Shown here one piece after another: positions 23,110 to 47,370 of a stretch of DNA of 64,000 nt. The notes under the pieces were generated by a model, which saw only the letters and a program-made list of their open reading frames with translations, ran no database searches and was not told where the DNA came from. The translations under genes and the position numbers were made by a program. The stretch covers positions 96,479-160,478 of the forward strand of contig CAMWYJ010000002.1 of NCBI GenBank assembly GCA_947178445.1, read 5' to 3'. Every line of letters begins with the position of its first letter. The stretch's first letter is position 1. This DNA comes from an uncultured Clostridium sp. (GTDB lineage: Bacteria > Bacillota > Clostridia > Lachnospirales > Lachnospiraceae).

Positions 23110-24819
23110 CTAATCCTCTGATGTGACGGTTCTCATCCACTCTTCCAGAGTCGTAACCTGCAGCCCTGGCACAATCGCACCACCTTCCGTTGCATCATAT
23201 ACCGGCATTACCACATCTTCTTTCTTTACCCGTTTTTCTATCCATTTGTTATATATAATAAATAAACGGCTTGTAGGAACCGTTCCTCCGCCTATTGCAG
23301 AAACCTGCTGCATATCTGCTGTTTCACCCGCCATCCTTCTCGCCGTTCCGGCAGCATGGGCTAGATTATCCGTATATGCCAGATCCAAACCGATAAATGC
23401 AATGGATTTGCTGTTTAAATAAATACATACATCCAAAGCGGTGGTGCTGACAGAACCACCTGTTTCATATAAATGCCACCCTTTTTTCGCCGCCAGCTCC
23501 TCTGCCCGGTCATATCCATTTTGACAAATCAAATATTTCTTTCCCTGATAGTTTTGGGAATACCCCTTATAGGCTGTTGCCAAATAAAGCATAGGAACCT
23601 GGCTATCCTCCAACCCTTTGATATGACTATATATCCGGCTATTGGCATCTGTTACAATCATATAATCTACATCAATTCCAAGGCTTAAAAGCTTTCGAAA
23701 TGCAGTTTCTACTGACAAAATAACCATATTCGGCTTTTTTTCTTTTAATAATTCCACATTTTTGTCCAGAGATGGTCCGGCTGCCACAATAACTACATCC
23801 TTTCCCTCAAAGCTCTCCCGAAGCCCATCTACATACCCATCATATTGCCTGAAATTCTCCCGGCTGTTACTCTCAAACAAAGCAGCAACATTACGTTTAC
23901 CACTGTCACGAATGAAAAACATTTCCATCTGTTCACGAATCCGTTCATCCTGAATATGACGCAGGGAAGGATGATGTATTATTAAATTTTCCTGAATGTT
24001 TGAAAGCGTACCAATAATTTTTTGGAAATCAGGATCATACACAATAGAAAATCCCGGTAAAGCAAGAAAATAAGACATATCTACAGCTGACAGACAATGG
24101 TAAATAATATCCAGGTCGTTTTCATAAACTGTCAGCACAAGCCCCTCATCCAGCAGCAGTAATTCCCTGACATGATAGCCCAGACCCATACCCCAGATTA
24201 CATAGTTTTCACTCCCCGCCCGATAATAATATCTTGCAAAATCCGCAGCCTCAGCCATTGGAGCTACATTGCTGTGATAGTAATACATTCCCTGTTCGTC
24301 CTGTCCCGACATAGTAAAGGCACCGGAATTCGTATCCTCTAAACGATGCATTCCCTGCCATGTACCTGCTTCACTTTCTTTCTCATAACGTTCATGATAA
24401 GCTTTTAGCTGTTTCCACAAAACAGCATCCTTTTTTTCCAGGGCAGCCATATTATTTATCCACACATTCGGATCTGTACAAATGACATCATAACTGCGAA
24501 TTACACTCTGCAAGGATTGTAAAAATGGAATCAACTGAAGTTCCAGCAAATCTGCCAATAAGACATAGTCCTGATTTTCCTGTGCACTCAGCATATCTTG
24601 CAAAGATGCGCCTACTCCCTCCTGGCTCACGAATTCCATATCCCGGTTATAATAAGTAAGATCGGAAAAGACAGCCTCCAACATCGGCATCATAGAACCC
24701 GTTACCTGACCAAAGAGCCTCACCACACAATCATAATTTTGTGTGTGGCAGGCATAAATAATTCTATGAATATGCTCCTGCAGTTGTGTACTGATGTTGT
24801 AAATCTGTTGTTTTGTCAT
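23110..24819 (-). CDS. Motility-associated factor (Maf) family glycosyltransferase (DUF115/MptE-like)
   Basis: Central VVIVAAGPSLDKN..DYMIVTDAN..GGSVSTTALD blocks typical of Maf nonulosonate transferases. ATG at 24819 overlaps the upstream stop (ATGA) and follows GGAGAAGGAGAAAA. Confidence 0.8.
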   Translation of the reverse strand: MTKQQIYNISTQLQEHIHRIIYACHTQNYDCVVRLFGQVTGSMMPMLEAVFSDLTYYNRDMEFVSQEGVGASLQDMLSAQENQDYVLLADLLELQLIPFLQSLQSVIRSYDVICTDPNVWINNMAALEKKDAVLWKQLKAYHERYEKESEAGTWQGMHRLEDTNSGAFTMSGQDEQGMYYYHSNVAPMAEAADFARYYYRAGSENYVIWGMGLGYHVRELLLLDEGLVLTVYENDLDIIYHCLSAVDMSYFLALPGFSIVYDPDFQKIIGTLSNIQENLIIHHPSLRHIQDERIREQMEMFFIRDSGKRNVAALFESNSRENFRQYDGYVDGLRESFEGKDVVIVAAGPSLDKNVELLKEKKPNMVILSVETAFRKLLSLGIDVDYMIVTDANSRIYSHIKGLEDSQVPMLYLATAYKGYSQNYQGKKYLICQNGYDRAEELAAKKGWHLYETGGSVSTTALDVCIYLNSKSIAFIGLDLAYTDNLAHAAGTARRMAGETADMQQVSAIGGGTVPTSRLFIIYNKWIEKRVKKEDVVMPVYDATEGGAIVPGLQVTTLEEWMRTVTSED

Positions 24820-27203
24820 TTTTCTCCTTCTCTCCACTTCTCAAACCCAAGTTCCATATTAATTGTAATATCTGTACTTTCCCACATTTCATCAGAGCCC
24901 TCTGTGGTTTCTCCGACAAACAAAAGCGTACTGATATCTCCATCCGCTCCCTCTGGCAGGCAATATGAATACACATTTTTGTTATTTCCCTTATTTATAA
25001 GGATTTTCTCTCCTGTATCCGGTGCCACCAAATAGATATTACAATCCTTCTTTACCCCTGTATCTGACACCTCATCCTTTACTGCCAGTTCAATACTCTT
25101 AATGTTTATCTTTACGTCAAACTCACTATTATTAACAAGTGTTATATCATCTGAGAATATCTGTTCACGGTTTAAAATCTGCTGGGGGTCAATATGTATT
25201 GTAAATTGCTGTGGCATAAATACAGATACCAGTTCTGGTTTTTCCACTGTAATGGTCTGCTCTTTTACCGATACATTACCTGCATGATCGGTAACCGTCA
25301 CCACAACATCATACTCCCCTTCTTCTGTAAACGGCAGAGAAAACTCGTATTTTGACGGAACCTCTATCCCTTTATCAATCACTACCTCCTCTAAAAGAGT
25401 GAGATCACTTATATCATAAGATTCTCCATTTACACTGCATTCCACCTTCTCAATACCTGAAATAATATGCCCCTTATCAGCCACATCAACCCATAAGGTA
25501 TATGGTGTAGTACAAATGGCATCCTGCGCCATGGAAATCTCCGGTGCACTCTGTTCCATCAAATAGTATTTGGATATCACATCTGAAGCATTGCCTGCTT
25601 TATCGGTGCAATTCATCAAAATTCTTCCATAAAAGTCATCTGCAATTTGAATCCCTGCCTCATTAAAATGGTCAACTACATATAAAAGCTTGTCACCATA
25701 CACATAACAAAGCTTATCAATACCAGTTCCCGGAGTTCCATCCAAATCATCATCACAAGCAATATTCAGCTTTGAGTCATTCGTGCAATAAATCGTCTTG
25801 TTATCACCCTGCAGTTTATTAAGTCCCTCCTCATCAAAGGTCAGCACTGGCGATACCGTGTCTTTTGAATAGGTAAAATCCACACCCGTCGTCACTTGGC
25901 TCCCATTTGAAAAATACAATGTTACCTTCTCATCTGCTGCATCCTTTGTAAGTGTTACCGCACTGCCAAACTCTCCATCTTCACCTATCCGCACCTGGTT
26001 AAATCCCTTTATTCCCGTCGGTTCAATTGTTATATCCCCTACAAATGCCTCCACATCTGTACGCATACTGCCCCTTACCGTAAAATAACCGGCATTTGCC
26101 ACAATCTTCTGCTCTGCCTCTTCCGATTCCTGTTCTTCCTCCCCAGACTGTACATCTTCTTCCTGTGCCAACGCCTCTTCCTGCTCTGTTTCTTCTGTAT
26201 CCGATGCGTTCTCCTGGTCTTCAGACACTCCTACATCATCTGCCTCTTCCTCAGAAGACGGCAGTTCCTCATTTGACTCACTCTTCCTGCCACCACTTAC
26301 TGTTTTCTTCACTGCTGTGCGGGCTTTTCGCTCATCTTCCGACAGGCTCTTTTCAATGGGAGATGTAGGAAGGATTGCATTCCAGATATTCTTCTGAAAC
26401 TGTATGCTGGCAGTTATCCGCTTGTCTTTTTCCGTATTGTCCTGTGTTTGCTCCTCACTATCCTCTGTATTCCGGATATCTTCCTCATCGTCCTGCGCCT
26501 GTCCCTCGCTATCCTCTGTATTCCGGGGATCTTCCTCACCATCTTCCATGTTCCGGTTACTTTCCTCATCATCTATATTCTGTGTCTGCTCTTCACTGTC
26601 TGCTACATCCTGAACATTTTTTCCATTATCCTTCTCAGGCCTCGTCTCAAATACATCATTTAACAGGTAATCCGCTTTTGTCTGCTTTCCATCATAATTA
26701 AAGTCGATGGCATATCCAATCTCTACCGGATATTGATAAAGTACTTTCTCTTCATTGCCCAAAGGCTTTATTCCATTGTTTCTATATAATGCCTGCACCT
26801 GTGAGAGCGGAACTGGATTTTCTACAACCGCATTTCTGTCACTGGTCTGCGCAGGAGACACAACATTTCTTTTTACGCTGCCTTTCTTACTGGATGTTTG
26901 TTCCTGCTGATCATAATCCGTCTTTTCTGCAGCTACCTCGGAATTATGAATTTCAATACTTGCCGTTGTATTCTTATTTGTCACTGTATTGTGTTTCTTC
27001 ACCGATGCTGTACTCATCATCTGTTCTTCCGGAATGGAATGTGTCACGCCACTTCCCAAAAGTGATATCATCAAGAGAAGTACCAGCGTACCAGCACAAA
27101 TACCCTCTGCCAGCCTCTTTTTCATTACAATTGATAATCTTCTATTCAATGTCGCAAAAAATACATATATATATACGAATATCCGGGCAATTTTTTCACG
27201 CAT
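24816..27203 (-). CDS. Large membrane-anchored surface protein with an acidic repeat region and Ig-like C-terminal domains
   Basis: 795 aa with a TM near the N-terminus, an about 250-aa D/E/S/T-rich tract with 17-aa repeats (RNTEDSE.Q.QDDEEDI) and beta-rich modules (e.g. VVVTVTDHAGNVS). SD GGGAGGA lies before 27203. Confidence 0.7.
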   Translation of the reverse strand: MREKIARIFVYIYVFFATLNRRLSIVMKKRLAEGICAGTLVLLLMISLLGSGVTHSIPEEQMMSTASVKKHNTVTNKNTTASIEIHNSEVAAEKTDYDQQEQTSSKKGSVKRNVVSPAQTSDRNAVVENPVPLSQVQALYRNNGIKPLGNEEKVLYQYPVEIGYAIDFNYDGKQTKADYLLNDVFETRPEKDNGKNVQDVADSEEQTQNIDDEESNRNMEDGEEDPRNTEDSEGQAQDDEEDIRNTEDSEEQTQDNTEKDKRITASIQFQKNIWNAILPTSPIEKSLSEDERKARTAVKKTVSGGRKSESNEELPSSEEEADDVGVSEDQENASDTEETEQEEALAQEEDVQSGEEEQESEEAEQKIVANAGYFTVRGSMRTDVEAFVGDITIEPTGIKGFNQVRIGEDGEFGSAVTLTKDAADEKVTLYFSNGSQVTTGVDFTYSKDTVSPVLTFDEEGLNKLQGDNKTIYCTNDSKLNIACDDDLDGTPGTGIDKLCYVYGDKLLYVVDHFNEAGIQIADDFYGRILMNCTDKAGNASDVISKYYLMEQSAPEISMAQDAICTTPYTLWVDVADKGHIISGIEKVECSVNGESYDISDLTLLEEVVIDKGIEVPSKYEFSLPFTEEGEYDVVVTVTDHAGNVSVKEQTITVEKPELVSVFMPQQFTIHIDPQQILNREQIFSDDITLVNNSEFDVKINIKSIELAVKDEVSDTGVKKDCNIYLVAPDTGEKILINKGNNKNVYSYCLPEGADGDISTLLFVGETTEGSDEMWESTDITINMELGFEKWREGEK
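26450..26600 (-). repeat. In-frame 51-bp tandem repeat (about 3 units) encoding the acidic RNTEDSE repeat
   Basis: CTATCCTCTGTATTCCGG recurs at 26458 and 26509 (51-nt period), followed by a third degenerate unit. Confidence 0.6.
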
Positions 27204-27266
27204 GGCTTATCCTCCCTTCCTGATCTTACAAATACTTTCAGTATTCGTCACTTTTAAACCAATCTA

Positions 27267-28118
27267 TTAATATTGTCTCCTATGTGTATAAATCGAAAAA
27301 CCTGCCGTAAGCATTACAATATATACCACCACACCAAATATAATATGCACTGCCGTTATCTGCATATCCGGCCAGCACCATGTAAGCGGGGACACGGCTG
27401 TCAATATCTCCGTCTGCGTACCAATCTGTGAAATCTTATCTACAATGGCACCCTCCCGTCCGGTCAGCACCAGCAGCGCCGAAAAAAAACGCAAAAATGC
27501 CGGAATTCGGGAAACTAATAGCGGAATAATAAGAATTGCTACTATCGTATCACCTGACATATCTTTTTTTCCTTTACAAGCTGCCGCAAACAAGGCAATT
27601 ACAAGATATAGCATGCAGACTAAAAACAAAATACCATAATATTTTAATGCATTCCATATTCCCTGTGTATAACGGAGTATTGCTGCAGATACAACATTTA
27701 CCACAGCAAGAGAAAGGCAGCAAAGTACCATTTCCCCCATCCACACAAACCATTTTGCTGCGAAAAGTTCTCTCCGGCTGACTCCTGCATTGTGTAGGTA
27801 AACTATGGTTTCCAGACGTTCCTCCTCCGATATCGCCTGTGCCTGTTCCTTCATTATATTATAAATCAGGTAAAAAGGGTATGCCAGCATAAAAAACTGC
27901 CATACATTCAGCCATAAATGGCTGGTCCAGCTCCTAAGACAGAGCAGGTCCTTTAACATATCCGGCCATTTCATATAGTTGTTATTAAAATTCGGAAATA
28001 TTCCATCAACAGCCATACAAACCGCAAACAGTATAACAGAAAAAATAATCGGCCAGACAATATATTTTAACATCCTCTTCTTTTTTCTTGTAATCTCAAA
28101 ATATACAACTATATTCAT
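27267..28118 (-). CDS. ABC-2-type permease-like membrane protein
   Basis: 6 TM with an EEERLETIVYL..VSRRELFAAKW block like the ABC-2 E-x-ERE-GT-LE / SR motif. ATG at 28118 overlaps the upstream stop (ATGA). Confidence 0.65.
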   Translation of the reverse strand: MNIVVYFEITRKKKRMLKYIVWPIIFSVILFAVCMAVDGIFPNFNNNYMKWPDMLKDLLCLRSWTSHLWLNVWQFFMLAYPFYLIYNIMKEQAQAISEEERLETIVYLHNAGVSRRELFAAKWFVWMGEMVLCCLSLAVVNVVSAAILRYTQGIWNALKYYGILFLVCMLYLVIALFAAACKGKKDMSGDTIVAILIIPLLVSRIPAFLRFFSALLVLTGREGAIVDKISQIGTQTEILTAVSPLTWCWPDMQITAVHIIFGVVVYIVMLTAGFSIYTHRRQY

Positions 28119-28993
28119 TGCAGCCACCTTTCGTAATTTTCAAACAGCTCTTCCTCCATTGTAAGCTCTTCCACGTTAAAATTCCTGCATCCAGACATAC
28201 CAATGCGTATACCTAATTCTTTCATATCAGATTCCCTGTAAAGAAAGCGGAAACACTCCTTATTCCGGCTAAGTATCTCCATTTTTTCCCGCATGAAAGA
28301 GGCAATACTGCCTCCCCATAATGTGACCACCTTAGCAGGCAACGGCAGCTGATCCCTATTATACTGCCCGGCAATTTTACCATTTTCCAAAAAAATATAT
28401 TCATGGCAAGGTATTACCACTTCTTTATAACTTTGTGCGGCAATAACAATGCCAGATCCCCTTGAATACAGATTAACGATTTCCTTCAAAATGCGTCTAT
28501 AATCCTCCCGCTCCAGCATATCATAAGGACGATCTAACAGCAATAATGCCGGCTGTGCCATAACTGCCTGTATAATGGATACAAGCCGGTTATCTCCAAA
28601 AGTCATCTCCAGAAGCTGTTCATTCGCATTTATTCCAAAAAGAGATAAAAGCTTTTCTGCTGTTGCCTCCATCTGTTCACTCCCATTTGCAATTCCATGA
28701 ATAAAATCCCATACTGTCAAATCCGGATAACAGATGATATCATCCGGAACATATTGAATTCTCTTTGGATATGCTGCCACTTCCTCTTTTTTCATCCCGG
28801 GATATGTAATCTGACCCTTATCTGGCTGATATAACCCTGCTATCAGCTTTAAGATTTCCCCGGCACTGTCATCCTCAGAAATAAGCGCAGTAATCTGTTC
28901 TTTCTTTATTTGCAGAGAAATATCATTTAACAGCACATTCTGTTGTCCCTTTACTGTTACCTGACTACATCTGCATAATACTTCTTTTGACAT
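28115..28993 (-). CDS. Degenerate ABC ATPase-like protein (catalytic motifs lost)
   Basis: ABC fold layout, but Walker A is replaced by ALISEDDSAGEILK, the signature by TFGDNR, and Walker B is LLLLDRP (Arg in place of the catalytic Glu). ATG at 28993 follows GGAGGAATCAG. Confidence 0.65.
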   Translation of the reverse strand: MSKEVLCRCSQVTVKGQQNVLLNDISLQIKKEQITALISEDDSAGEILKLIAGLYQPDKGQITYPGMKKEEVAAYPKRIQYVPDDIICYPDLTVWDFIHGIANGSEQMEATAEKLLSLFGINANEQLLEMTFGDNRLVSIIQAVMAQPALLLLDRPYDMLEREDYRRILKEIVNLYSRGSGIVIAAQSYKEVVIPCHEYIFLENGKIAGQYNRDQLPLPAKVVTLWGGSIASFMREKMEILSRNKECFRFLYRESDMKELGIRIGMSGCRNFNVEELTMEEELFENYERWLQ

Positions 28994-29085
28994 CTGATTC
29001 CTCCAAAAAAGCCCATTTAAAAACACTAATATATACAAAATATCATAGAAAGTTGGTTATCGCAATACATTTTATTATTAATGAA

Positions 29086-29138: not shown

Positions 29139-29164
29139 ATTTTATCATAAGCACTTTCTCATGC

Positions 29165-29192
29165 TTAAAAAAGGGCTGCATAACAGCCCTTT
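29165..29192 (-). terminator. Rho-independent terminator after the flagellin gene
   Basis: Minus strand GGGCTG-TTAT-GCAGCCC followed by TTTTTT. Confidence 0.8.
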
Positions 29193-29214
29193 TCCCACTT
29201 ACATTTCTTTTCCG

Positions 29215-33657: not shown

Positions 33658-33771
33658 ATCCGCACAACAGGGAAATTTTTCTGTTGCAGGGCTAAACTTT
33701 CATTCAAGTCAGTCCGATACAAAATATAAGGCATGGTATGTCTGAGTAATGACGAGGAGGATGAGGAGTTC

Positions 33772-34323
33772 ATGTCAAACGAATCAAGTCAGGAACGAAT
33801 CTCTCAAAAATTGTCTCAAGGCACAGAGAATAAGCCAAAAAACAATGTTCTTGTCATTGTGGTATGTTTTATCGTTGCCGCCATCGTAGTTACTGCTCTT
33901 GTATTAATTTTAACGAGACAGTCTGCTGATGCCGAGAAGCGTAACGTAGTTGTAACCCCTGATAATGTGGAAGAGGTTCTTTCCGATATGCAGAATCAAC
34001 AGGTTCAAGCAGGTACATATGAGGTTACAATGAATACAACATGGAATTTCGACAAAGGGGATTCTGCTTCCAGTAATGCCTATGTTGAAAATTCTACCGC
34101 AAATGCTAACAATGTGTATTTTGACATTGTCCGCTCTGACACAGAAGAGACAATTTACAAATCGCCTATCATACCATTAGGCAGCCATTTGGAAAATATT
34201 ACTTTGGATACCCCGTTGGACAAGGGGACTTACGATTGTGTACTGACCTATCATCTATTAGATGATAACGAGGAACCGATTAGTATGCTGAATATTAATC
34301 TATCCATTGTAATAGAGAATTAG
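33772..34323 (+). CDS. Membrane-anchored extracytoplasmic protein, unknown function
   Basis: ATG at 33772 (MSNESSQ) follows GAGGAG. Single TM (VLVIVVCFIVAAIVVTALVLIL) followed by a beta-rich domain. Confidence 0.6.
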   Translation: MSNESSQERISQKLSQGTENKPKNNVLVIVVCFIVAAIVVTALVLILTRQSADAEKRNVVVTPDNVEEVLSDMQNQQVQAGTYEVTMNTTWNFDKGDSASSNAYVENSTANANNVYFDIVRSDTEETIYKSPIIPLGSHLENITLDTPLDKGTYDCVLTYHLLDDNEEPISMLNINLSIVIEN

Positions 34324-34403
34324 GTGGCAGTAGGTACATTGTACCTGCAATATAACCACAAACGAAGACGTTTGTAAATTTAATGTTCAAGGAGGAATGT
34401 TTT

Positions 34404-35726
34404 ATGAAGAAATTTGGAAAGAGACTCATGGCTTTGACCATGGTGGGTGTATTAATGTGTGCACCTTTAACTGCATTTGCTACCGAAGTAGATGAGGAAT
34501 CCTCAGCACAGGGTAACATTACTGGTTCTGGTGACGTAGAAGGCATTGTGAACAAAGATGTATTTAAAGTTGTACTCCCTACCGTTGCTGCAGGTGATAC
34601 TACTTTTAATTTCATCTTAGACCCACAGGGATTAATTAAGGACACTGACGGATCAAAATACACTAATGCTACCTTTGATGCTGCTGCAAAAGGACTCTAT
34701 TTTGCAAATCCACAGGATGGCGGAAGCACCAAGTATATGGCTTCTAGTCCTGCACTTACCGCTACTAACAAAGGTACGGTTGACGTTGATGTTACTTTAA
34801 CTGCAACTGCTGATGCTGATTCTTTGAAGGATGCTGATAAGGGATATACAATCGGACTTGCTGCAGATGATACCTTTGCCAACGATAAGACTACTAGTGT
34901 ATATCTTGCTTTAGTTAGCGGAGATCAGACAGCCGCTTTGACCGCTGATGGTGCAACCATTACCGACACTTTAGCTGCTGCACCAAGCGATGCTTATGAA
35001 GTAACATATAATTCTACTAGCAGTAAGTACGAGTATGGTTTAACCGCTGCTGCTCAGGCTGCTGATTATACTGGATTTAAATCTTTAGACTTTAACTTAA
35101 CCGGTGCATGTAATACTGATGCAGATTGGGCTGTTGCAGAGGATGCTGCACCAAGCGTAAATGTTGCTTGGACATTGGAGAAGCATATTGATGAATTAAC
35201 TTATGATAAAATGAAAGGTGATACTTCTGCAATCACTGTTACAACATATGATGCTGTAAAATCTGCTAAGTTAGTTAAGTTCAATGGTGCTGCTAACACA
35301 AATCCATTAACTATAGGTACAAATTGTTCTGTATCTGGCACCTCGTTTACTTTACTTGCTGCATGGACTACTAAAATTACGGCTGAAACTGTTATCACAT
35401 TAACATTTGAAAATGGTCGGACCCAGACTCTTACGATTAATGTTATTGACCCTACAGCCACCCCTCTGCCATTGACTTATAATAGAAAAAGCGGTGATAC
35501 TTCTGCAATTTCTGTTACAACTTTTGCCGAGGTAAAATCTGCTAAGTTAGTTAAGTACAATGGTGCCGCTAACGCAAATCCATTAACTATAGGTACAAAT
35601 TGTTCTGTATCTGGCAAGACCTTTACTTTACTTGCTTCATGGGCTTCTAAGATTACAGCTGAAACTGTTATCACATTAACATTCGAAGATGGTCGGACTC
35701 AGACTCTTACTGTTAATGTACAATAA
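34404..35726 (+). CDS. Secreted Thr/Ala-rich surface protein with two tandem about 90-aa C-terminal repeats
   Basis: ATG at 34404 follows AAGGAGGAA. Signal peptide MKKFGKRLMALTMVGVLMCAPLTAFA. A WxL-like NVAWTLE motif precedes the repeats. Confidence 0.7.
   Translation: MKKFGKRLMALTMVGVLMCAPLTAFATEVDEESSAQGNITGSGDVEGIVNKDVFKVVLPTVAAGDTTFNFILDPQGLIKDTDGSKYTNATFDAAAKGLYFANPQDGGSTKYMASSPALTATNKGTVDVDVTLTATADADSLKDADKGYTIGLAADDTFANDKTTSVYLALVSGDQTAALTADGATITDTLAAAPSDAYEVTYNSTSSKYEYGLTAAAQAADYTGFKSLDFNLTGACNTDADWAVAEDAAPSVNVAWTLEKHIDELTYDKMKGDTSAITVTTYDAVKSAKLVKFNGAANTNPLTIGTNCSVSGTSFTLLAAWTTKITAETVITLTFENGRTQTLTINVIDPTATPLPLTYNRKSGDTSAISVTTFAEVKSAKLVKYNGAANANPLTIGTNCSVSGKTFTLLASWASKITAETVITLTFEDGRTQTLTVNVQ
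35196..35723 (+). repeat. In-frame tandem duplication (276-nt period, two units, high nucleotide identity by eye)
   Basis: Unit 1 starts at 35196 (LTYDKMKGDTSAITV..) and unit 2 at 35472 (LTYNRKSGDTSAISV..). Long identical runs include AAATCTGCTAAGTTAGTTAAGT and ATAGGTACAAATTGTTCTGTATCTGGCA. Confidence 0.85.
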
Positions 35727-36060: not shown

Positions 36061-37110
36061 TTATATTATCTTGTCCAAAAGATAATAATTATAATTCGCT
36101 TTTTTTAATATTTTTTCAGGAATCTCTATTTTATCAGAATAGAAACTGTTAATACTATTTTTCACCTTTTCATAAGATGCATTAAAAATATCCATACACC
36201 TTTCTGAATATCCAATTTGCTCATAATATAAACTTGTCTTTGCATATTGTACAGAAAAACTCATAACAGATTTTTTCAACGTACAACCAACAATCCCAAC
36301 ATGAAATTTTCCTGTTATTACGCAATCCACATTATCAATAATTGTTATCAACTGACTGACATCTCTATACTTAAAAGTCATACAACGGTTTTTAGGAAAA
36401 TGCCGAGCAAACTCTTTAATCTCAGCATAACCGGCATAACCACCTATACCATCTGCACCTATTACAAAAACAATATCATCCCGTGTAAAAAACAGTTCCC
36501 GTACAGCTTGATAAACCTTATCTAAGTATTCCTTAACATTTAAATAATGAATAAATATTACTTTTTTTCCAGAATAACTTTCTTTTATCTTTCGTGATTC
36601 AGCACATTCTTTAATAAAATTATGCGAAATGAGAGTTTGTGCTGTATCTGCCGTAACGTATATTTTCTTCTTACCAGCTCCAACTTTTTGTAATAATCTT
36701 TTACTTTTATAATCCCTTACAGAAATTAAAACAGCTCTTTTTGCAATCAGTCCTAACATCTTATCCAGTAGCGGATATTCATAAGGTCCTATTCCCTGTG
36801 CTAGTAATATAATTTTTTTCTTTAAAAAAACTGCCTTAATACCTGGATAATAATATCTGGTTACTCTCTGTATTGTTTTTTTCAGAGAACCTGAATACCA
36901 ATGTTCAATATAACCCAAGTACCCTCCTGGTATAAAAATAAAAAAATCACACTCATTAATCTCTTTTAAAGTTGTATCTTTGTTATAATCAACTATTTGT
37001 AAGTTATTATCATATTTCCGAAGATTATTTATCAATATCTGCCTTAATAAATCATCTCCAAAATTTCCCACTTCACATTGCAGCGCTCCACAAAGCATTA
37101 TCTTCCTCAT
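36061..37110 (-). CDS. Polysaccharide pyruvyl transferase family protein (CsaB/WcaK-like)
   Basis: 349 aa. N-terminal GALQCEVGNFGDDLL and the general layout are typical of PS_pyruv_trans proteins. Confidence 0.7.
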   Translation of the reverse strand: MRKIMLCGALQCEVGNFGDDLLRQILINNLRKYDNNLQIVDYNKDTTLKEINECDFFIFIPGGYLGYIEHWYSGSLKKTIQRVTRYYYPGIKAVFLKKKIILLAQGIGPYEYPLLDKMLGLIAKRAVLISVRDYKSKRLLQKVGAGKKKIYVTADTAQTLISHNFIKECAESRKIKESYSGKKVIFIHYLNVKEYLDKVYQAVRELFFTRDDIVFVIGADGIGGYAGYAEIKEFARHFPKNRCMTFKYRDVSQLITIIDNVDCVITGKFHVGIVGCTLKKSVMSFSVQYAKTSLYYEQIGYSERCMDIFNASYEKVKNSINSFYSDKIEIPEKILKKANYNYYLLDKII

Positions 37111-37135
37111 ATCGTATCCTTTCTATTTTCTAAAA

Positions 37136-37723
37136 TCATCTATTTGACCAATACTCTAAAATTTGTTGGACTTTCTCTTTTTGAAATTGCTCGGGTGTTA
37201 GAACATAATAATTAAATTCTGCATCACGTATTGTCACTGTTTTGATTTTTTCAAATCCAAGCTGCTTTGAAAACGAATTCATTACTCGATTATCCTTTTT
37301 ATTTTCATTGACCATTCGATTTAAATGCAAGATTTCAAATGCAAATTGTATCGTTAAATATTTTGCTTCAATTGCATATGGTGCTTCTTTGGCATAATTC
37401 TCATCAATAATACAACTACCTTCCTCACAGGAACCGTCACTGATATCATAAAGCCTTATCGTTCCAACCAAATTTCCCTTCTTATTATGTATTCCCCAAT
37501 AAATATCATCCTTCCGGATGCAGTATTTCTGATACCATATTCTTTGTTGTTCTAAAGTAATGTCTGACTCCTGATGTAAAAAATATTTATTTCTTTCCTG
37601 ATTTCTTAACATTACAATATCATTCAAATCTATTTCTCTAATTGGAATGAGATTACAAAAACTACCTTCTATAACATTTTGCTTATAACTAAATACTATT
37701 TCCTCAAGATTCATTTTCATCAC
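37136..37723 (-). CDS. GNAT-family N-acetyltransferase (RimJ/RimL-like)
   Basis: 195 aa with the Acetyltransf_3-type pattern (..NEN..NRVMNSFSKQLGFEKI..). Overlaps the upstream gene by 20 nt. Confidence 0.7.
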   Translation of the reverse strand: MMKMNLEEIVFSYKQNVIEGSFCNLIPIREIDLNDIVMLRNQERNKYFLHQESDITLEQQRIWYQKYCIRKDDIYWGIHNKKGNLVGTIRLYDISDGSCEEGSCIIDENYAKEAPYAIEAKYLTIQFAFEILHLNRMVNENKKDNRVMNSFSKQLGFEKIKTVTIRDAEFNYYVLTPEQFQKEKVQQILEYWSNR

Positions 37724-38099
37724 CTGATTCTAATAATTCAACCAAACCAATCTGTGACATTAAGAATACTACTTTTCTGTTATTGAATAAAATTGCACTC
37801 TTTTCATCAGATACTAAAACTGCACCACTCGCAATCCATTTCTCTTTTTCCTGTTCTATATTTGCCACTTCATAGCATGTATGATATAAATTAATATGTT
37901 TTTTGACAAATCTGCTAACAGCATTTCCTTCTATTAACTCCACTCTTCCAGAACCTTCTAATTCTAACATGCACAACCATGCATCCTGTAAAGGATCATA
38001 TATTTTTTCAGTTCTACTCACAATTACTGTAACCGTTTCTAAAAACTCTATTGTCTTATCTATATTATCCGTTGCAATTCCAACATGGTGTAATTTCAT
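37704..38099 (-). CDS. VOC-family protein (glyoxalase/methylmalonyl-CoA epimerase-like)
   Basis: MKLHHVGIATDNIDKTIEF start and about 130-aa size are typical of the VOC fold. Confidence 0.7.
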   Translation of the reverse strand: MKLHHVGIATDNIDKTIEFLETVTVIVSRTEKIYDPLQDAWLCMLELEGSGRVELIEGNAVSRFVKKHINLYHTCYEVANIEQEKEKWIASGAVLVSDEKSAILFNNRKVVFLMSQIGLVELLESGDENES

Positions 38100-38102
38100 T
38101 TT

Positions 38103-38339
38103 CTATCTTCCTTTACTTTCAATCAAACTAAGTAATTCTCCAACTGTAGCTAAACTTGCAATTTCCTCTGTTGTAAATTTTATGCCAAACTCCATTTCCA
38201 CTTCCATAATCATTTGAAAATGTGTTAATGAATCCCATCCTTCTATATCATCAGCTGTAATTCCCGGTGCAATTACCAACTCTTCGTCTTCAAATACTTC
38301 TCTAAATATTTCTTGTATTTTTTCTTCTATCTCGTTCAT
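38103..38339 (-). CDS. Acyl carrier protein
   Basis: 78 aa and acidic, with the phosphopantetheine attachment motif GWDSLTHFQ. Confidence 0.8.
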   Translation of the reverse strand: MNEIEEKIQEIFREVFEDEELVIAPGITADDIEGWDSLTHFQMIMEVEMEFGIKFTTEEIASLATVGELLSLIESKGR

Positions 38340-38342
38340 TTT

Positions 38343-40148
38343 CTAATCCTCCATAATATAAATTTGAAATACTGGTCTACTTTCTATATCATATTGGTAG
38401 ATCCTACTGTTTTTCTCTGTTTTTCCATCTTCAACATCTATTTCGCTAAAGCCCAATTGCGGATACAATTCTTTAACCAACACATTTTTTTCTGTAGGAA
38501 TGTATTCACCTATGACCTTATCACAATTGTGCTCATCTGCCCAATCATAAATATGTTGAAACACCAGATATTCTAATCCACGTTTTAATATTCGGCAACT
38601 CATAACCCATGTATCAATAAAACAGACGTTATCCTGCTTTTGCAAGATAACACAAGCAATACATCCATAATCACTAAATTTATCTTTTAATGAGACTGCT
38701 ATTAAACCATAATCCTCCCTGCCTAATAAACTTTCTATATAGGTATCCAAATACCTTCTTGTACGGACATTAAATTGGTTTGATTTATTTATTAACTGAA
38801 CAAACCTCTTTAACATTTTAGAAGTCACTTCTAAGATGTTTGCTTTCATTTCTAAAGCTTTCAAATATTCATCATAATTCAATGATATCTCCTGCAATTC
38901 TATCCTGGCACGATTCTTCTCATAAGTCTCTGCCCTGGCATAATCCTCTGGCGTTATTTGAAGCCACTCGAAAGCCCAAACTGCATCTAATGCGTTCACA
39001 TAATTTGCAGGATCCTCAGGTACATCAACCACTGTCACTTCAGGAAGATTCATTCGCACGATTTCCCTCTCCGCAGGATTATCATCAAAAAAAACCATAC
39101 TATCCAATCCTATATTTATTTCTTCAGCAATTTTTTTAATATTAGATGCCTTGTCCTGCCAGTTTGCCTGAAACGAAGCAAAATCATTTAAGGATAACGG
39201 CATTTTTTTATTATATTTAAAGGGCTGTTCTGCTATTTCCCTGTCATTTTTACTACATACAGCCAATAAAATTCCTCTGTTATTCAACTCTTTCAAATAT
39301 TTTTGAAATGTAAGATAAGACTCCCCTACAGCATCATTAACATCAATCCTTATCCCATCCCATCCTTCTTCTGCTACAATTCCACCCCATAATGTATTAT
39401 CCAAATCAAGTACTATACATTTTTTTATTTTTCCTCTCCACGCAACAATCAGCTTCACAAACATCTCCACAACATCTCCAATATACTGCAAAGAAAAAGA
39501 AACTTTACTTAATGCATACAGAGAACTATCAAACCAATTCTTTTTACCATAAAGCGAAGCTAAATACTCCAAATCAACTATTACAACATTATCAGAATGC
39601 TGTTGTGTTAATTCGATGTTCAACCGTTTTATAAAGTTATGTTGTGAAAATATATAATTTGCTTCAAGGTTGCCAAGTACTCTTTCGATCGGAATAACAA
39701 AATTTCCCTGTAATATCTTTGTCTGTGGTAAATATTTTTTAATGATGCCCCATATATTTTTATAATCGTCTATATAATATTTTATTAGTTTATTAATCCC
39801 ATCAATATCTTCATTATATTGTGGCAACTGGTTAATATCACGATAATCTGGCAATATAATTAGTATATCTGGCTGAAATTGAAAAAGAGCGGACTCTCCA
39901 TTCAAAACATCCATTTTAATCCCATTATATTCACCCTCATATATATCTGCACTTACCCCTTCTTTATAGAGTAAAAGTCTTAAAACTTGTACAAAATATT
40001 GAATGCTACATGATCCAAGAACCGCAACCTTTATATCAGAAGGCGTTGTATTCACAATATTTTTCACTTTTTTTGCAAGACGTAAAATACTACGATAGTC
40101 ACTCAAATGCAAGTTTTTTATTTCTTCCTGTACTTCTCTTATCTGCAT
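38343..40148 (-). CDS. FkbH-like HAD-IIIC phosphatase/acyl-loading protein
   Basis: HAD motif I VLDLDNTLWGG, CSKNDRE, FFDDNPAERE, and a C-terminal GNAT-like region; this is the FkbH-like domain layout. ATG at 40148 follows AGAGGTG. Confidence 0.75.
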   Translation of the reverse strand: MQIREVQEEIKNLHLSDYRSILRLAKKVKNIVNTTPSDIKVAVLGSCSIQYFVQVLRLLLYKEGVSADIYEGEYNGIKMDVLNGESALFQFQPDILIILPDYRDINQLPQYNEDIDGINKLIKYYIDDYKNIWGIIKKYLPQTKILQGNFVIPIERVLGNLEANYIFSQHNFIKRLNIELTQQHSDNVVIVDLEYLASLYGKKNWFDSSLYALSKVSFSLQYIGDVVEMFVKLIVAWRGKIKKCIVLDLDNTLWGGIVAEEGWDGIRIDVNDAVGESYLTFQKYLKELNNRGILLAVCSKNDREIAEQPFKYNKKMPLSLNDFASFQANWQDKASNIKKIAEEINIGLDSMVFFDDNPAEREIVRMNLPEVTVVDVPEDPANYVNALDAVWAFEWLQITPEDYARAETYEKNRARIELQEISLNYDEYLKALEMKANILEVTSKMLKRFVQLINKSNQFNVRTRRYLDTYIESLLGREDYGLIAVSLKDKFSDYGCIACVILQKQDNVCFIDTWVMSCRILKRGLEYLVFQHIYDWADEHNCDKVIGEYIPTEKNVLVKELYPQLGFSEIDVEDGKTEKNSRIYQYDIESRPVFQIYIMED

Positions 40149-40279
40149 TAGCACTGCACCTCTTCAAAATACATCTCTACTAAGTGTTTATCCAATTGAC
40201 CCCTTCATATATTACTGGAATATCTAGTCCCTCTCTTGTATCATATATATCATTCATATACATTACTTACAATAATATT

Positions 40280-40308
40280 ATTATATCCATTTAAACACTA
40301 TTTTTCAA
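40280..40308 (-). promoter_or_regulatory. Internal sigma-A promoter for the FkbH sub-operon
   Basis: Minus strand TTGAAA-17 nt-TATAAT (-35 at 40303-40308, -10 at 40280-40285) in the 212-bp gap. Confidence 0.6.
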
Positions 40309-40366
40309 GCATAAGTAAAACCAGAGCCGACCGTTGTTCTAGCGATTTATTACAATTTATCCTCAC

Positions 40367-41425
40367 CTATTGAATATCATCCTGCAAGCCTTCATTTACA
40401 ACATATGCCGCAATACGCCTGGCTCCATTTCCGTCAACTAATGACTGCATGCGTATAGATTTACTTTTCCGTTCCTCATAATGATTCTTGTAAAATAAAA
40501 GTGATTTCACACATTGCTCTATACATTTTTGATGATTCTGATAAGCATTACCGGCATACAGCATACAGCCAGCTTTTTCCCATACTACTGCTCCTTCCTG
40601 ATTCTCTGCCACTTCCAAACAGATAGAAGGAATTCCGCAGGCGCATAGCTCATAGGTAGTTGTTCCCGCTGCGGATACAGCAACATCACATTCACGCATC
40701 CAGCCAGCCATATTATCCACATTCTCATGCAGGCAGATATTGGAATGTAAACCTGCCAAGAGATGCAGCATCTCTTTATTCTGATTAAAACATCCAACAA
40801 TTACATGATACTCCAATTCCATCAATTCAGAATTCCTAAGCACAGCATCTAACAAATCACCCGCCACATTTAACTGATCTGTTCCTCCTGTTGTAATAAG
40901 TACTTTCCTGACCTGCGCATGCACCTCATAGGATTTCAAGGCAAATTCTTCTCTCAATGGAATATAACGACTTCCTATCAAAAAACGGGGATTTATACCC
41001 GTTAACTGATACACACTTTCATATAAATTTTCATCTGCAAAAGCACTATAATTAATCACAGTATCTACAGGATATGCAAACCGGCGCAAATCATCAATAT
41101 AAATTATTCTTGTATATTGTGATACCTTCTGTAAATATTCCTCTGTCACAAAATAGCTGTCCATAAGAAGAACCTCTACATGATGCTCTTTCACATAATC
41201 ACATAGCTTCTCTGTCTCCTGATCAAGCTCATTCCAAATAGTTTCTAATACATCCACGAAAAAGCCTTTTTGTTTGATTAACTTGCAGGGTCTGTCATCC
41301 GCCACCACAAAGGTAACCTCTGCTCCCATTTTCCGTATCTGCTCTGCAACAGACAAGCACCTCATAACATGTCCCGTTGCTATTATCTCATTACCATCGA
41401 CACGTATATATACATGATTTATCAT
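40367..41425 (-). CDS. pseG: UDP-2,4-diacetamido-2,4,6-trideoxy-beta-L-altropyranose hydrolase
   Basis: IRVDGNEIIATGHVMRCLSVAEQ N-terminus and a GT28-like C-half typical of PseG. Adjacent to pseC. Confidence 0.78.
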   Translation of the reverse strand: MINHVYIRVDGNEIIATGHVMRCLSVAEQIRKMGAEVTFVVADDRPCKLIKQKGFFVDVLETIWNELDQETEKLCDYVKEHHVEVLLMDSYFVTEEYLQKVSQYTRIIYIDDLRRFAYPVDTVINYSAFADENLYESVYQLTGINPRFLIGSRYIPLREEFALKSYEVHAQVRKVLITTGGTDQLNVAGDLLDAVLRNSELMELEYHVIVGCFNQNKEMLHLLAGLHSNICLHENVDNMAGWMRECDVAVSAAGTTTYELCACGIPSICLEVAENQEGAVVWEKAGCMLYAGNAYQNHQKCIEQCVKSLLFYKNHYEERKSKSIRMQSLVDGNGARRIAAYVVNEGLQDDIQ

Positions 41426-41444
41426 ATTACTATCTTTCCTACTA

Positions 41445-42584
41445 TTACATTTTCAATTGTTTTTCAACAATTTCGATTGTTTGCTCTACCACATAATCTA
41501 CCTGTTCCTCTGTCATACCTGCAAATAACGGAAGCGTAATCGCTCTGTCATAGAACTCCTCTGCATTCGGACAACAGACATCCTGATAACCATGTGTTTG
41601 ATAATATGGATGTTTATATACTGGAATATAATGTACATTTACTCCAATCCCAATTCTTCGCAGTTCCTCAAATACATTCTTCCTGATTGCTGCTGGAACC
41701 TGAACCATATATAGATGGTAGCTGCTTAAACAGTCCGGATGCTGGTAGGGTGTAACAATATTGGAATTACCTGCAAATCCTCTGTCATACCTGTCCGCTA
41801 ACTCTCTTCTATGTTTCGCAAAAGCGTCCAGCTTCTTCATCTGGGAAATCCCCAACGCACATTGGATATCGGTGATGCGGTAATTATATCCTAGTGCTAA
41901 CTGTTCATAATACCACGGACCATCATGGTTTTCTAAAAATTTCTCTTCTCTTGTAATTCCATGTGTATGATATAGTTTTAACTTCTCATACAAATCCTTA
42001 TCATTCGTTGTTACCATTCCGCCTTCTCCAGTTGTTACCGGCTTCACTGGATGAAAACTAAAGGTTGTCATATCGGATATGGTGCCAATTTTTCTTCCTT
42101 TATACTCACCACTAATAACCTGGGCACCATCCTCAATTACAATTAAATGATGCTTTTTTGCTATTTCAGTAATGGCATCCATTTCACAAGGCTGACCTGT
42201 GTAGTGAACAGGAATAATTGCTTTCGTCTTTGAAGTAATTTTACGTTCTATATCCTCTGGGTCAATATTATAAGTATCCTTCTTAATATCCGCAAATACT
42301 GGAGTTCCCCCACAATAAAGGACACAATTTGCTGACGCCGCAAAAGTAATTGGAGATGTAATCACTTCGTCACCCTGTCCGATTCCCGCTGCCAGACAGG
42401 CAATATGGAGTGCTGCTGTTCCATTTGATACGGCTACCGCATATTTAGCCCCTACATAATCTGCCACTATCTGCTCAAATTCAGCCACCTTTGGCCCCGT
42501 TGTAAGATAGTCGGAACGCAGTACATCCACAACCGCTTGTATATCTTCTTCATCTACTAATTGTCTTCCATATGGTATGAACAT
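41445..42584 (-). CDS. pseC: UDP-4-amino-4,6-dideoxy-N-acetyl-beta-L-altrosamine transaminase
   Basis: IPYGRQLVDEEDIQAVVDVLRSDYLTTGPKV start and a DegT-type PLP block (SFHPVKPVTTGEGG) are characteristic of PseC. Confidence 0.85.
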   Translation of the reverse strand: MFIPYGRQLVDEEDIQAVVDVLRSDYLTTGPKVAEFEQIVADYVGAKYAVAVSNGTAALHIACLAAGIGQGDEVITSPITFAASANCVLYCGGTPVFADIKKDTYNIDPEDIERKITSKTKAIIPVHYTGQPCEMDAITEIAKKHHLIVIEDGAQVISGEYKGRKIGTISDMTTFSFHPVKPVTTGEGGMVTTNDKDLYEKLKLYHTHGITREEKFLENHDGPWYYEQLALGYNYRITDIQCALGISQMKKLDAFAKHRRELADRYDRGFAGNSNIVTPYQHPDCLSSYHLYMVQVPAAIRKNVFEELRRIGIGVNVHYIPVYKHPYYQTHGYQDVCCPNAEEFYDRAITLPLFAGMTEEQVDYVVEQTIEIVEKQLKM

Positions 42585-42611
42585 ATATGCTTTCCTCCAT
42601 CTATATATAAC

Positions 42612-43940
42612 CTATCTCTTCTTCTTAAATCTGTCACCATAAAATGTCTCTGTTGTCAATCTGTATGAAACCGGTCTTTTATATGATTCCAAATTTTCTT
42701 TACAATATTTTCTTAATTGTTTGATATAATCCCTGTTATTATTTTTATCTTCTACACAAATATTGGCAATAACACTTTGTCCTGTAATTGGATTTGCCTC
42801 ACCATAAACATATACATCTTTCACTCCATCAAAAGATAATAAAACACTTTCTATCTCATTTGGATATACTTTTTCTCCGCCTACATTTATTAAATCTGTA
42901 GTTCGACCCAATATTTTAAGATAATCCCCTTTTACCTCAACCTTGTCCTTTGTATTAAACCAGCCCTCTTCATCAAATGGAGATGGGGCATTCAGGTAAC
43001 CTATCATTGCGGATCTGGCTTTTATATATAAAATATCATCTTCTATTTTTGTTTCGTATCCCATGCCGCCTATTTTCATCCAAAGAGAATCTGAACTTTC
43101 CGACTTCGTAGACATAATGCCAATTTCTGATAAGCCATAAGTTTGTTTTAATCTCACATCTGGCAGAATTTTATGCAATTGCTTTAACGTCGACTCCGGC
43201 ATTGGTTCTGTACCATATGATATCATCTTAAGGCTGGATAAATCATATTTCTCATAAACTCTGCTCAAAAGAATCATATTGATAAATGTCGGTGATGTCG
43301 GTAAAAGCTCTATATCATACTTCTCAATAATTCCACACACTTCTTCGGGACTTCTGGTTTTCAAGGTAGCAATCATACACCCGCTTGACAATGAATGCAT
43401 GATTGTATTAAATCCACCTATATGATCAAACAGCAAAAATGTAACTGTACGTAAACATTTTCCCGGCTGATTAAATTTTTCTATTAAATAAGTTAAATCA
43501 TGCAACGCTGCTTTTGGCTCTCCAGTTGTTCCAGATGAAAATAGTATTAACCCCGGAGCTTTTTTTTCAATCAAGCCACGCAGCATTTCATGTTTCACTT
43601 CATAGTCAGTTTTCCTAATCTCTATATCCTCTTGCAAATTGATGACATATTGACTTTCAGAAATTCTAATATAATTCTCTTTTCCTTTAATCGTTTTCGA
43701 TATAGGAACGATGATAACATCACGCTCTATTAAAGCAACCAAAAACGCAATTGACACAGGTGTAAACTCTGCTATAATAGAAACAACATTTCCTGAAGAA
43801 ATATTGTTCTCCTCCAATAACTTTGTAACCTTTTGATATTCCTCATAAATATCTCCAAAAGTATATTCTTTATTATCTGAAACTACAGCCAGTTTGTCCT
43901 TGTTCTCTCTTAATCGATCTAATATATAATCTATCTTCAT
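42612..43940 (-). CDS. AMP-dependent adenylating enzyme (acyl/aminoacyl-carrier-protein ligase-like)
   Basis: AMP-binding signature LFSSGTTGEPKA, YGLSE and GEKVYPNEIE. 442 aa (short C-domain). ATGA overlap with the upstream SDR. Confidence 0.82.
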   Translation of the reverse strand: MKIDYILDRLRENKDKLAVVSDNKEYTFGDIYEEYQKVTKLLEENNISSGNVVSIIAEFTPVSIAFLVALIERDVIIVPISKTIKGKENYIRISESQYVINLQEDIEIRKTDYEVKHEMLRGLIEKKAPGLILFSSGTTGEPKAALHDLTYLIEKFNQPGKCLRTVTFLLFDHIGGFNTIMHSLSSGCMIATLKTRSPEEVCGIIEKYDIELLPTSPTFINMILLSRVYEKYDLSSLKMISYGTEPMPESTLKQLHKILPDVRLKQTYGLSEIGIMSTKSESSDSLWMKIGGMGYETKIEDDILYIKARSAMIGYLNAPSPFDEEGWFNTKDKVEVKGDYLKILGRTTDLINVGGEKVYPNEIESVLLSFDGVKDVYVYGEANPITGQSVIANICVEDKNNNRDYIKQLRKYCKENLESYKRPVSYRLTTETFYGDRFKKKR

Positions 43941-44632
43941 CGATTCACCCCTCCTAAATATATAATCTGCCCTGTTATAAAGTCACTGCTAGGATTTAGG
44001 TAAAAGTCAATTACATTGATTATATCCTTAAACTCACCAAAACGATGAATTGCCTGGTTATCTAACAACTTATTCAATTTCTCTTCTGGTACTTTTGCAA
44101 TCAAATCTGTTTTTATTGGAGTTGGTCCTACAGCATTAACTGTAATACGAAACATTGCCAATTCTTTAGCCAATATTTTGGTCATGCTTTCAACTGCCGC
44201 TTTAGAAGAAGAATAGGCCATTTCTCCCTCTAAATTAAATGGTACTGCTACTGTTGAAAAATTAACAACTCTTGGATGCTCAGATTTCTTAAGCAAAGAG
44301 GCAAATGCTCGGATGCAAATCAGTCCTCCAAGATAATTGACCTCCATCAAATGCTTTGCAGTCTCGATAGGGGTCATCATAAAATGATTCATTGCTGCTA
44401 TTCCCGCATTGTTAATCAAAACGTCAACAAATTTGTAGTCTCTACGTACCTGCTTTGCAAAATCATTCACTTGCTTTTCATCACATACATCTACAACAAA
44501 ATGCCTGTACTGATCATGCACAATTTGACTTTCATGACGACTACACCCTATAACGGTATGCCCTTTCTCAAGATAATACTGAGCAATATTATATCCAATT
44601 CCTTTATGTGTACCTGTAATCACAATATTCAT
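43937..44632 (-). CDS. SDR-family oxidoreductase
   Basis: VITGTHKGIG cofactor motif, NNAG, YSSSKAA catalytic motif. Confidence 0.85.
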   Translation of the reverse strand: MNIVITGTHKGIGYNIAQYYLEKGHTVIGCSRHESQIVHDQYRHFVVDVCDEKQVNDFAKQVRRDYKFVDVLINNAGIAAMNHFMMTPIETAKHLMEVNYLGGLICIRAFASLLKKSEHPRVVNFSTVAVPFNLEGEMAYSSSKAAVESMTKILAKELAMFRITVNAVGPTPIKTDLIAKVPEEKLNKLLDNQAIHRFGEFKDIINVIDFYLNPSSDFITGQIIYLGGVNR

Positions 44633-44634
44633 TA

Positions 44635-44925: not shown

Positions 44926-44964
44926 ACTCTTAACTCCTTACATACATATAATCACTTCACTCAC

Positions 44965-46523: not shown

Positions 46524-46527
46524 AAAA

Positions 46528-47340: not shown

Positions 47341-47370
47341 TCATATCACCTGCCATTGTATAAAATTTCC

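Follow-up and report, generated by a model that had tools for sequence, protein, structure and literature searches.

A conserved pseudo-ATPase and ABC-2 permease pair with exported beta-rich partners beside a flagellin glycosylation set in a Lachnospiraceae genome

A stretch of 64,000 nt from an uncultured Clostridium sp. of the Lachnospiraceae (the window, whose positions are used for all its coordinates below) contains four co-directional genes on the minus strand. In order, these encode an ATP-binding cassette (ABC) protein without catalytic motifs (the pseudo-ATPase), an ABC-2-type permease, a 795-aa exported protein with immunoglobulin (Ig)-like domains, and a Maf-type flagellin glycosyltransferase, with the housekeeping gene mmdA downstream. 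We lean towards the reading that these four genes are a standard flagellin system and a separately conserved envelope module that were fused by chance into one operon, and that the ABC-2 pair of the module is a non-hydrolysing, NosDFY-like scaffold for exported proteins. An earlier note on this DNA had described the co-directional genes and two ATGA start/stop overlaps, and direct reading finds both as described: the overlaps lie at 28118-28115 (ATPase-like gene and permease gene) and at 24819-24816 (795-aa gene and Maf gene). Such overlaps are frequent in operons and are nothing unusual by themselves. The gap between the permease gene and the 795-aa gene is 63 nt, the start codons chosen here match the start sites of homologues, and a GGAGG at 29004-29000 precedes the ATG of the pseudo-ATPase gene.

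The pseudo-ATPase passes the ABC nucleotide-binding profile (PF00005, 53.5 bits against a cut-off of 25). Its AlphaFold2 (AF2) model has a predicted local distance difference test score (pLDDT) of 94.9, and Foldseek matches it to ABC nucleotide-binding domains at E ~1e-18 (7e-19 to 4rvc). The best full-length structural matches are NosF (template modelling score 0.70-0.76) and the nucleotide-binding plus regulatory domains of ABCA proteins, and residues 220-292 form a C-terminal regulatory-type domain with pLDDT > 90. As modelled, the protein is a type V nucleotide-binding domain followed by a C-terminal regulatory-type domain. A sequence search of solved structures returned generic ABC matches only. 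All five catalytic motifs are replaced. Walker A reads SEDDSAGE, without the Lys-Ser/Thr of GxxGxGK[ST], the Q-loop YVPDD, the signature TFGDNR, Walker B LLLLDRP and the H-loop AAQSY; in canonical relatives aligned to it the Q-loop reads YVPSE, and their other motifs are given in Table 1. The earlier note had listed Walker A, the signature and the Walker B Glu as lost, which is correct, and the Q-loop Gln and the H-loop His have gone as well. With all five motifs lost, the pseudo-ATPase should be unable to run an ATP cycle.

A profile search set 71 clusters of related proteins apart from ordinary ABC ATPases (scores of 270 bits or more, compared with 131 bits or less), and an exhaustive HMMER search that followed gave the wider family set. 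According to source names and record titles, nearly all members come from Lachnospiraceae and relatives. The family shows three grades of motif loss (Table 1) and has a C-terminal tail, EELTxEEEL..Y.RW, in common. In the intermediate grade the Walker A variant GxDDAGKT and the DEP of Walker B are kept, while the signature and the H-loop His are lost; a metagenome scan for this grade returned generic ABC ATPases only, at 23-30% identity and without the C-terminal domain. In the window grade the replacement motifs, YVPDD among them, are themselves conserved across ~54 clusters. When compared with the closest relative (locus L007), the ratio of non-synonymous to synonymous substitution rates (dN/dS) is 0.089 for the pseudo-ATPase, 0.143 for the permease, 0.114 for Maf and 0.032 for mmdA. 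Pseudogene decay was considered and rejected, on the dN/dS value and on the conservation of the replacement motifs. The pseudo-ATPase is conserved and under purifying selection.

Table 1. Motifs in the grades of the pseudo-ATPase family and in canonical relatives
Group	Walker A	Signature	Walker B	H-loop
Canonical relatives	GPNGAGKST	SLGNKK	LLILDEP	SSHNL
Intermediate grade, ~75 clusters	GxDDAGKT	TYQENK	LLILDEP	AxEKY
L020 type	GPxNAGKT	SYEQNK	D(E/N)P	ASRDY
Window type, ~54 clusters	SEDxSAG	TFEQNR	LLLL(D/N)RP	AAExY

What travels with the pseudo-ATPase was determined from 33 loci that carry a member of the family. Wherever the sequence after the ATPase-like gene is readable, the next gene encodes a permease homologue; the one exception is L113, to which we return below. 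The permease itself has six hydrophobic segments by hydropathy and matches PF12730 at 23.5 bits (E = 5.9e-5), which is below the cut-off of 27. In most window-grade loci a homologue of the 795-aa protein follows the pair, and this Ig-like protein and two further exported or membrane-anchored proteins, p196 and p447, co-occur with the pair in most of them. In the window the genes for p196 and p447 sit 5-8 kb away on the opposite strand; they adjoin the module in 14 of the 30 fetched loci of relatives. These include two distant loci of the intermediate grade, L111 and L112 (Roseburia sp.), where all five genes are co-directional. Here, p196 is 41-49% identical to that of the window, p447 (in L112) is 45% identical, and the match of the third gene is to the final Ig-like domains of the 795-aa protein. 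The conserved unit is the pseudo-ATPase with its permease, usually accompanied by the Ig-like protein, p196 and p447. Pfam scans of the partner proteins gave weak CBM_X2 and Ig-like matches only, and provided neither a family nor a name for any of them. As a separate observation, L008 has a 2638-aa open reading frame (ORF) immediately upstream of the module (1994-9910), which is non-repetitive and has no Pfam match and no homologue in the other fetched loci.

One clade of the module has an additional neighbour. In six loci, L001 (4725-6218), L002, L013, L024, L025 and L026, a gene for a 497-aa Wzy_C (O-antigen ligase/polymerase-like) protein lies directly upstream of the pair, and the six proteins are 64-100% identical. 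This could point to glycan transfer at the outer face of the membrane in that clade. It also bears on the possibility that the pair exports a lipid-linked glycopolymer made by the island, similar to TagGH/TarGH or Wzm-Wzt, with the Wzy_C ligase or the Ig-like proteins acting outside and the 795-aa protein maybe being glycosylated extracellularly. The pair is of the ABC-2 type and clusters with TagF-like, LicD, IspD/TarI-like, Bac_transf and Wzx genes, and the window itself contains two TagF-like genes and a Capsule_synth-like gene. However, transport needs an ATP cycle, and the window grade is left without any catalytic motif; even the best-preserved grade has lost the signature and the H-loop His. 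Furthermore, there is no Wzy_C gene in the window, and TagF-like genes are also part of flagellin-glycan pathways that are purely cytoplasmic, as in the C. difficile locus. An exporter is in our view an unlikely explanation.

The 795-aa protein has a hydrophobic N-terminal anchor (residues 30-58) and a beta-rich C-terminal part (residues 374-795, ~420 aa, pLDDT ~90 in the AF2 model), in line with the earlier note. The C-terminal block matches tandem Ig-like folds in Foldseek, e.g. the BIg domains of SiiE, and the protein ends in ...FEKWREGEK, without an LPXTG motif. In 40 homologues of the same architecture this block is constant while the lengths of the linkers vary. Residues 50-129, 176-254 and 301-364 are disordered in the model. 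The acidic tract had been put at about 250 aa and the protein labelled Ser/Thr-rich, and neither can be upheld: the tract is ~185 aa long (residues 190-375), consists of two disordered linkers around a conserved 37-aa island, and is acidic (33% Asp+Glu) but not notably rich in Ser+Thr (15.6%; 11-32% in the linkers across homologues). Since the tract follows an anchor predicted to have its N-terminus inside, it is predicted to be extracytoplasmic. The 17-aa RNTEDSE repeats encoded by 51-bp DNA repeats do exist, but there are only two copies (26430-26480 and 26481-26531) with 78% identity, plus one degenerate copy. Tandem Repeats Finder gave no 51-bp repeat, and the copies were found by another repeat search.

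The fourth gene belongs to a well-known type of system. Both Maf domains are above their cut-offs (PF01973, MptE-like catalytic, 123.5 bits against 34.6; PF20157, Maf N-terminal, 33.1 bits against 23.5), in agreement with the earlier identification, and nothing unusual was found in the protein itself. A gene for a 261-aa flagellin, the expected Maf substrate, lies next to the four genes, and the core genes for a pseudaminic acid (Pse) type nonulosonic acid (NeuB, a CTP_transf_3 cytidylyltransferase, a PseB-like protein, two DegT proteins and GT28_C, together with GNATs) are found at 40-58 kb of the window, upstream of Maf. With Maf, a flagellin and the Pse pathway side by side, this is an ordinary flagellin glycosylation set. 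It is worth noting that the Pse cluster carries an unusual load of acyl-modification genes (42612-50709 and 54171-56255), including an AMP-binding enzyme, two KASIII-like genes, two short-chain dehydrogenases/reductases and FkbH, which suggests a heavily derivatised nonulosonic acid. Another product of the cluster, of 694 aa, joins an aminoglycoside N-acetyltransferase-like domain to DUF4910.

The earlier note saw in the overlap between the 795-aa gene and the Maf gene a sign that the surface protein could be a non-flagellin substrate of Maf, and proposed to check whether the four-gene synteny is conserved. It is not. Among the loci compared, the overlap is found in the window only. A flagellin gene stands between the 795-aa homologue and Maf in L005, L006, L010 and L013, and in L001 and L025 the two are separated by a helix-turn-helix (HTH) gene, a flagellin gene and three glycosyltransferase genes. 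In L003 (10229-10886) and L004 (5835-6492) a toxin-antitoxin pair has come to lie between them, in both cases a nucleotidyltransferase with a substrate-binding protein of the MNT/HEPN type; L014 has a gap similar to that of L003 and L004, with unannotated content. Maf is upstream of the module in L026, and in L008, L009 and L024 no Maf gene was found within the 4-10 kb fetched on each side. L025 also has a Maf of its own kind, fused to an N-terminal glycosyltransferase family 2 domain (19561-22281, 906-aa product). Conversely, L011 has no 795-aa gene and the closest relative, L007, retains only 45 residues of it, and both still have Maf and the ABC pair; L030, with an Ig-like protein that is 73% identical, has neither Maf nor flagellin within 10 kb. 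The tight link between the 795-aa gene and Maf is local, not general, and a start/stop overlap in one genome should not be taken as evidence of functional coupling.

The idea of a substrate in its full form is that the 795-aa protein is a natural, non-flagellin Maf substrate that receives Pse on the Ser and Thr residues of its acidic tract before export. Apart from the overlap, the Pse cluster in the same island and the Ser+Thr content of the linkers fit this idea, non-flagellin proteins modified with Pse have been reported from H. pylori and C. jejuni (bioRxiv 10.1101/2025.07.13.664564), and the Maf of C. botulinum accepts engineered acceptors (PMC11339370). In addition to the variable synteny, the cellular compartments argue against it: Maf works in the cytoplasm, from which the tract is predicted to be exported, and the non-flagellin Pse proteins reported to date are cytoplasmic or flagellar (bioRxiv 10.1101/2025.07.13.664564). 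The reported Maf sites are flanked by hydrophobic residues (PMC11339370), and the Ser and Thr residues of the tract are flanked by Asp and Glu instead. The 795-aa protein is thus probably not a substrate of Maf, and we consider this explanation highly improbable.

A much broader association is that of the ABC pair with flagellar genes. In the window grade, a flagellin or Maf gene is found near the pair in the majority of loci, namely L001, L003, L005, L007, L011, L013-L015, L025 and L026. In the L020 grade, to which L020 from Lachnospiraceae bacterium 48-33 and L027-L029 belong, the pair lies within a cluster of Pse, acyl-modification and glycosyltransferase genes that ends in Maf. In the intermediate grade, genes for FliD-FliS-FlgN and two flagellins are found no more than 8 kb away in L112, and in L113 the pseudo-ATPase family gene abuts an operon of FlgN-FliS-FliD-FlaG-CsrA-FliW-FlgL-FlgK-FlgM. 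Flagellin, Maf, FliD, FliS or flagellin-glycan genes are thus neighbours in all three grades, down to 25% identity, and this recurrence with differing gene orders is the stronger evidence for a flagellar association. Since the pair is found again and again inside flagellar and flagellin-glycosylation loci, the module probably has a role connected with the flagellum or with the glycans of the island, at the outer face of the membrane. L011 is an instructive case, in which the pair is located, without an Ig-like partner, in a co-directional block of CysQ-CysD-CysNC, the pair, flagellin and Maf. The first three genes (6093-9738; CysQ-like, CysD-like and CysN/C-like) are those for synthesis of 3'-phosphoadenosine-5'-phosphosulfate (PAPS), which suggests a sulfated flagellin glycan in that species.

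Several points weigh against this reading. No flagellar gene is within reach in L008, L009, L024, L030 and L111; the neighbours in non-flagellar loci are rml, Wzx/Wzy, other glycan genes or a polysaccharide deacetylase. Many of the window-grade loci occupy the same chromosomal position, upstream of mmdA (89-97% identical), so part of the association in these close relatives is inheritance and not independent evidence. The intermediate grade is represented by three sampled contexts only, and in one of them, L113, no permease gene is called beside the ATPase-like gene. No sigma-28-type promoter pattern was matched upstream of the pseudo-ATPase gene (16 loci) or of the flagellin gene; the promoter candidates are sigma-A-like. 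As for the scaffold function, the remodelled pocket of the pseudo-ATPase might still bind some nucleotide.

If the association is real, it can be explained in other ways. The earlier note's second suggestion was that the four proteins form a membrane complex that organises flagellin glycosylation. The part of this that stands is the recurrence of the pair by flagellar and glycan genes in all grades; the part that does not is the gene set, which is a different one, and the association is positional. In a revised version, the pair, with or without the 795-aa protein, would be a membrane platform that recruits Maf or glycan enzymes near the flagellar export gate. The position of the pair in L011, directly between the PAPS-synthesis genes and flagellin-Maf, agrees with such a platform, and the pseudo-ATPase could bind a partner or a nucleotide sugar through its C-terminal domain and its pocket, which is conserved in its remodelled form. 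On the other hand, a cytoplasmic scaffold would have no need of outward-facing partners, of which there are three among the five conserved ones, several loci have neither Maf nor flagellin, and L112 and L113 have flagellar genes but no Maf. Together with the missing sigma-28-type promoter, this leaves the platform as a possibility of low probability. At the other extreme, the module might be an unrelated passenger of a hypervariable surface island, such as a phage-receptor mask or other fast-evolving cargo, with no functional meaning in its flagellar position. It does evolve much faster than mmdA (27-57% identity against 89-97%), its partners are gained and lost between species, and the island is a mosaic in which toxin-antitoxin pairs, a WHH nuclease-like gene and remnants of other genes are found. 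Yet a PADLOC scan of nine proteins from the region gave no match at E <= 0.01, and flagellar genes are again the neighbours in grades that have diverged deeply and differ in gene order. A mere passenger seems very unlikely to us.

The explanation that we prefer, two systems in one operon, would work as follows. Maf, the adjacent flagellin and the upstream Pse cluster would carry out ordinary cytoplasmic pseudaminylation of flagellin. The second system, the envelope module, would consist of the pseudo-ATPase, the ABC-2 permease, the 795-aa stalk protein, p196 and p447. In this module, a dimer of the ABC-2 pair with a dead cap may form a static membrane platform, on which the anchored or exported beta-sandwich partners could dock as NosD does on NosY, and the acidic linkers of the 795-aa protein may carry its four Ig-like domains across the cell wall and past it. 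A bolder version can also be formulated, which we hold to be distinctly unlikely. In this version the ABC-2 pair and its three exported beta-sandwich partners are an unrecognised, flagellum-associated envelope machine of Lachnospiraceae that lost ATP hydrolysis step by step and became a nucleotide-free scaffold, linking the glycosylation machinery or the glycosylated filament to wall-spanning Ig-like proteins, with the 795-aa protein perhaps co-modified by Maf in this genome.

Flagellins of Lachnospiraceae are major immune targets in the gut, and the ways in which these bacteria decorate or present flagella are, to our knowledge, poorly understood. A conserved, selected and unnamed five-protein envelope module in flagellar glycosylation loci is a testable handle on such loci. 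ABC-2 systems with exported partners are already known; what is new here is one with a fully degenerate nucleotide-binding subunit. Literature searches turned up no paper on an ABC-2 pair within islands for flagellin glycosylation, nor one on a fully degenerate homodimeric ABC subunit. The family is also a natural series from a near-canonical to a fully dead ATPase within one protein family and one gene context, and could show what an ABC-2 scaffold does after the use of ATP has ended.

The coordinates of the features are collected in Table 2. The promoter candidate before the pseudo-ATPase gene, which may serve a transcript of all four genes, was recognised from its sequence. It is nearly identical in L007 and L030, despite a different upstream gene in each. 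Where the window has the flagellin, L007 has a 1144-aa ORF upstream of the pair (325-3759), hybrid sensor histidine kinase-like from a look at its sequence, and the promoter-like sequence before the pair is kept there. The terminator hairpin after the flagellin gene was missed by a consensus terminator scan and confirmed by RNA folding.

Table 2. Features of the window
Feature	Position	Strand	Evidence
Pseudo-ATPase, 292 aa	28115..28993	-	PF00005, AF2, Foldseek, motif table, dN/dS
ABC-2-type permease, 283 aa	27267..28118	-	start overlaps pseudo-ATPase stop (ATGA); hydropathy, synteny, PF12730 below cut-off
795-aa exported protein	24816..27203	-	AF2, Foldseek, 40 homologues of same architecture, composition
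Two 51-bp direct repeats (RNTEDSE 17-aa repeat) in acidic linker 1	26430..26531	-	repeat search, 78% identity
Maf-type flagellin nonulosonic-acid transferase, 569 aa	23110..24819	-	PF01973, PF20157; start overlaps 795-aa stop (ATGA)
Sigma-A-type promoter candidate, TTGCGA-17 nt-TATTTT with TG upstream	29037..29065	-	sequence inference only
Intrinsic terminator, hairpin and U-run, after flagellin gene	29160..29195	-	RNA fold -19.2 kcal/mol, z = -3.6
Short flagellin, 261 aa	29215..30000	-	Flagellin_N 1.3e-28, Flagellin_C 1.7e-13
p196, membrane-anchored small beta-domain protein	33733..34323	+	homologues adjoin module in relatives
p447, exported beta-rich protein with C-terminal CBM_X2-like domain	34383..35726	+	CBM_X2 at 6.2e-7; homologues adjoin module
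Pse-type nonulosonic-acid biosynthesis and modification cluster	36061..57723	-	gene content

Other parts of the island were noted in passing. Just upstream of the flagellin gene is a 187-aa ORF (30153-30716) with no Pfam or NCBIfam match and no homologue in related loci. The segment 32397-33388 looks like a decayed variable part of the island: two genes that L005 has in intact form, one for an HTH protein and one for a 296-aa protein, have left remnants that make up its 113-aa ORF, and a weak WHH nuclease motif is present in the adjacent 210-aa protein. The Capsule_synth (KpsC/S-like) protein and the two TagF-like glycerophosphotransferases are encoded at the far end of the island (58184-63387), and may either act on the flagellin glycan or make a polymer of their own.

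Among known systems, serine-rich repeat glycoproteins of the GspB/Fap1 type resemble the 795-aa protein in being large surface proteins with a low-complexity tract and an adjacent glycosyltransferase gene. The tract here is acidic and not Ser-rich, there is no LPXTG, and no SecA2/SecY2 accessory genes were found in the window; an identity of this type was rejected on these grounds. The window Maf is like other Maf flagellin nonulosonic-acid transferases in its domains and in having a flagellin and a Pse cluster nearby, and differs from them in its translational overlap with a large exported protein, in this genome only among the loci examined. Degenerate nucleotide sites as in ABCG5/G8 are a parallel for the loss of catalytic residues from an ABC fold that stays intact and under selection. 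Known degenerate cases, however, keep one working site in a heterodimer (PMC7756502), whereas the pseudo-ATPase is a single-gene subunit, presumably a homodimer in which both sites are dead. TarGH/TagGH and Wzm-Wzt are likewise ABC-2 permease/ATPase pairs in glycan clusters with TagF-like, LicD or Wzy_C genes. Their ATPases are intact, in contrast to a family in which every grade has lost the signature and H-loop and the window grade all motifs, and the pseudo-ATPase has no carbohydrate-binding domain of the Wzt type. EcsAB of Bacillus subtilis (with RasP) is ABC-2-like and is regarded as a pair that works via a membrane partner and not as a classical pump, and the EcsA model 9a6w_B is the second-ranked structural match of the pseudo-ATPase in Foldseek. 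EcsA keeps its catalytic motifs, though, and neither a linked site-2 protease gene nor an EcsC-like gene was seen here. The closest architecture is that of NosDFY(L), which serves the maturation of nitrous-oxide reductase by copper delivery. NosF is an active ATPase with intact motifs and has no sequence-family kinship with the pseudo-ATPase beyond the generic ABC fold, NosD is a beta-helix and not Ig-like, and ATP-driven coupling is unlikely in the window module given its dead motifs. In both systems the partner of a six-helix ABC-2 permease is a nucleotide-binding subunit with a regulatory domain at its C-terminus, and the docking of an exported beta-rich partner on the permease, known from NosDFY, is what we propose by analogy for the envelope module.

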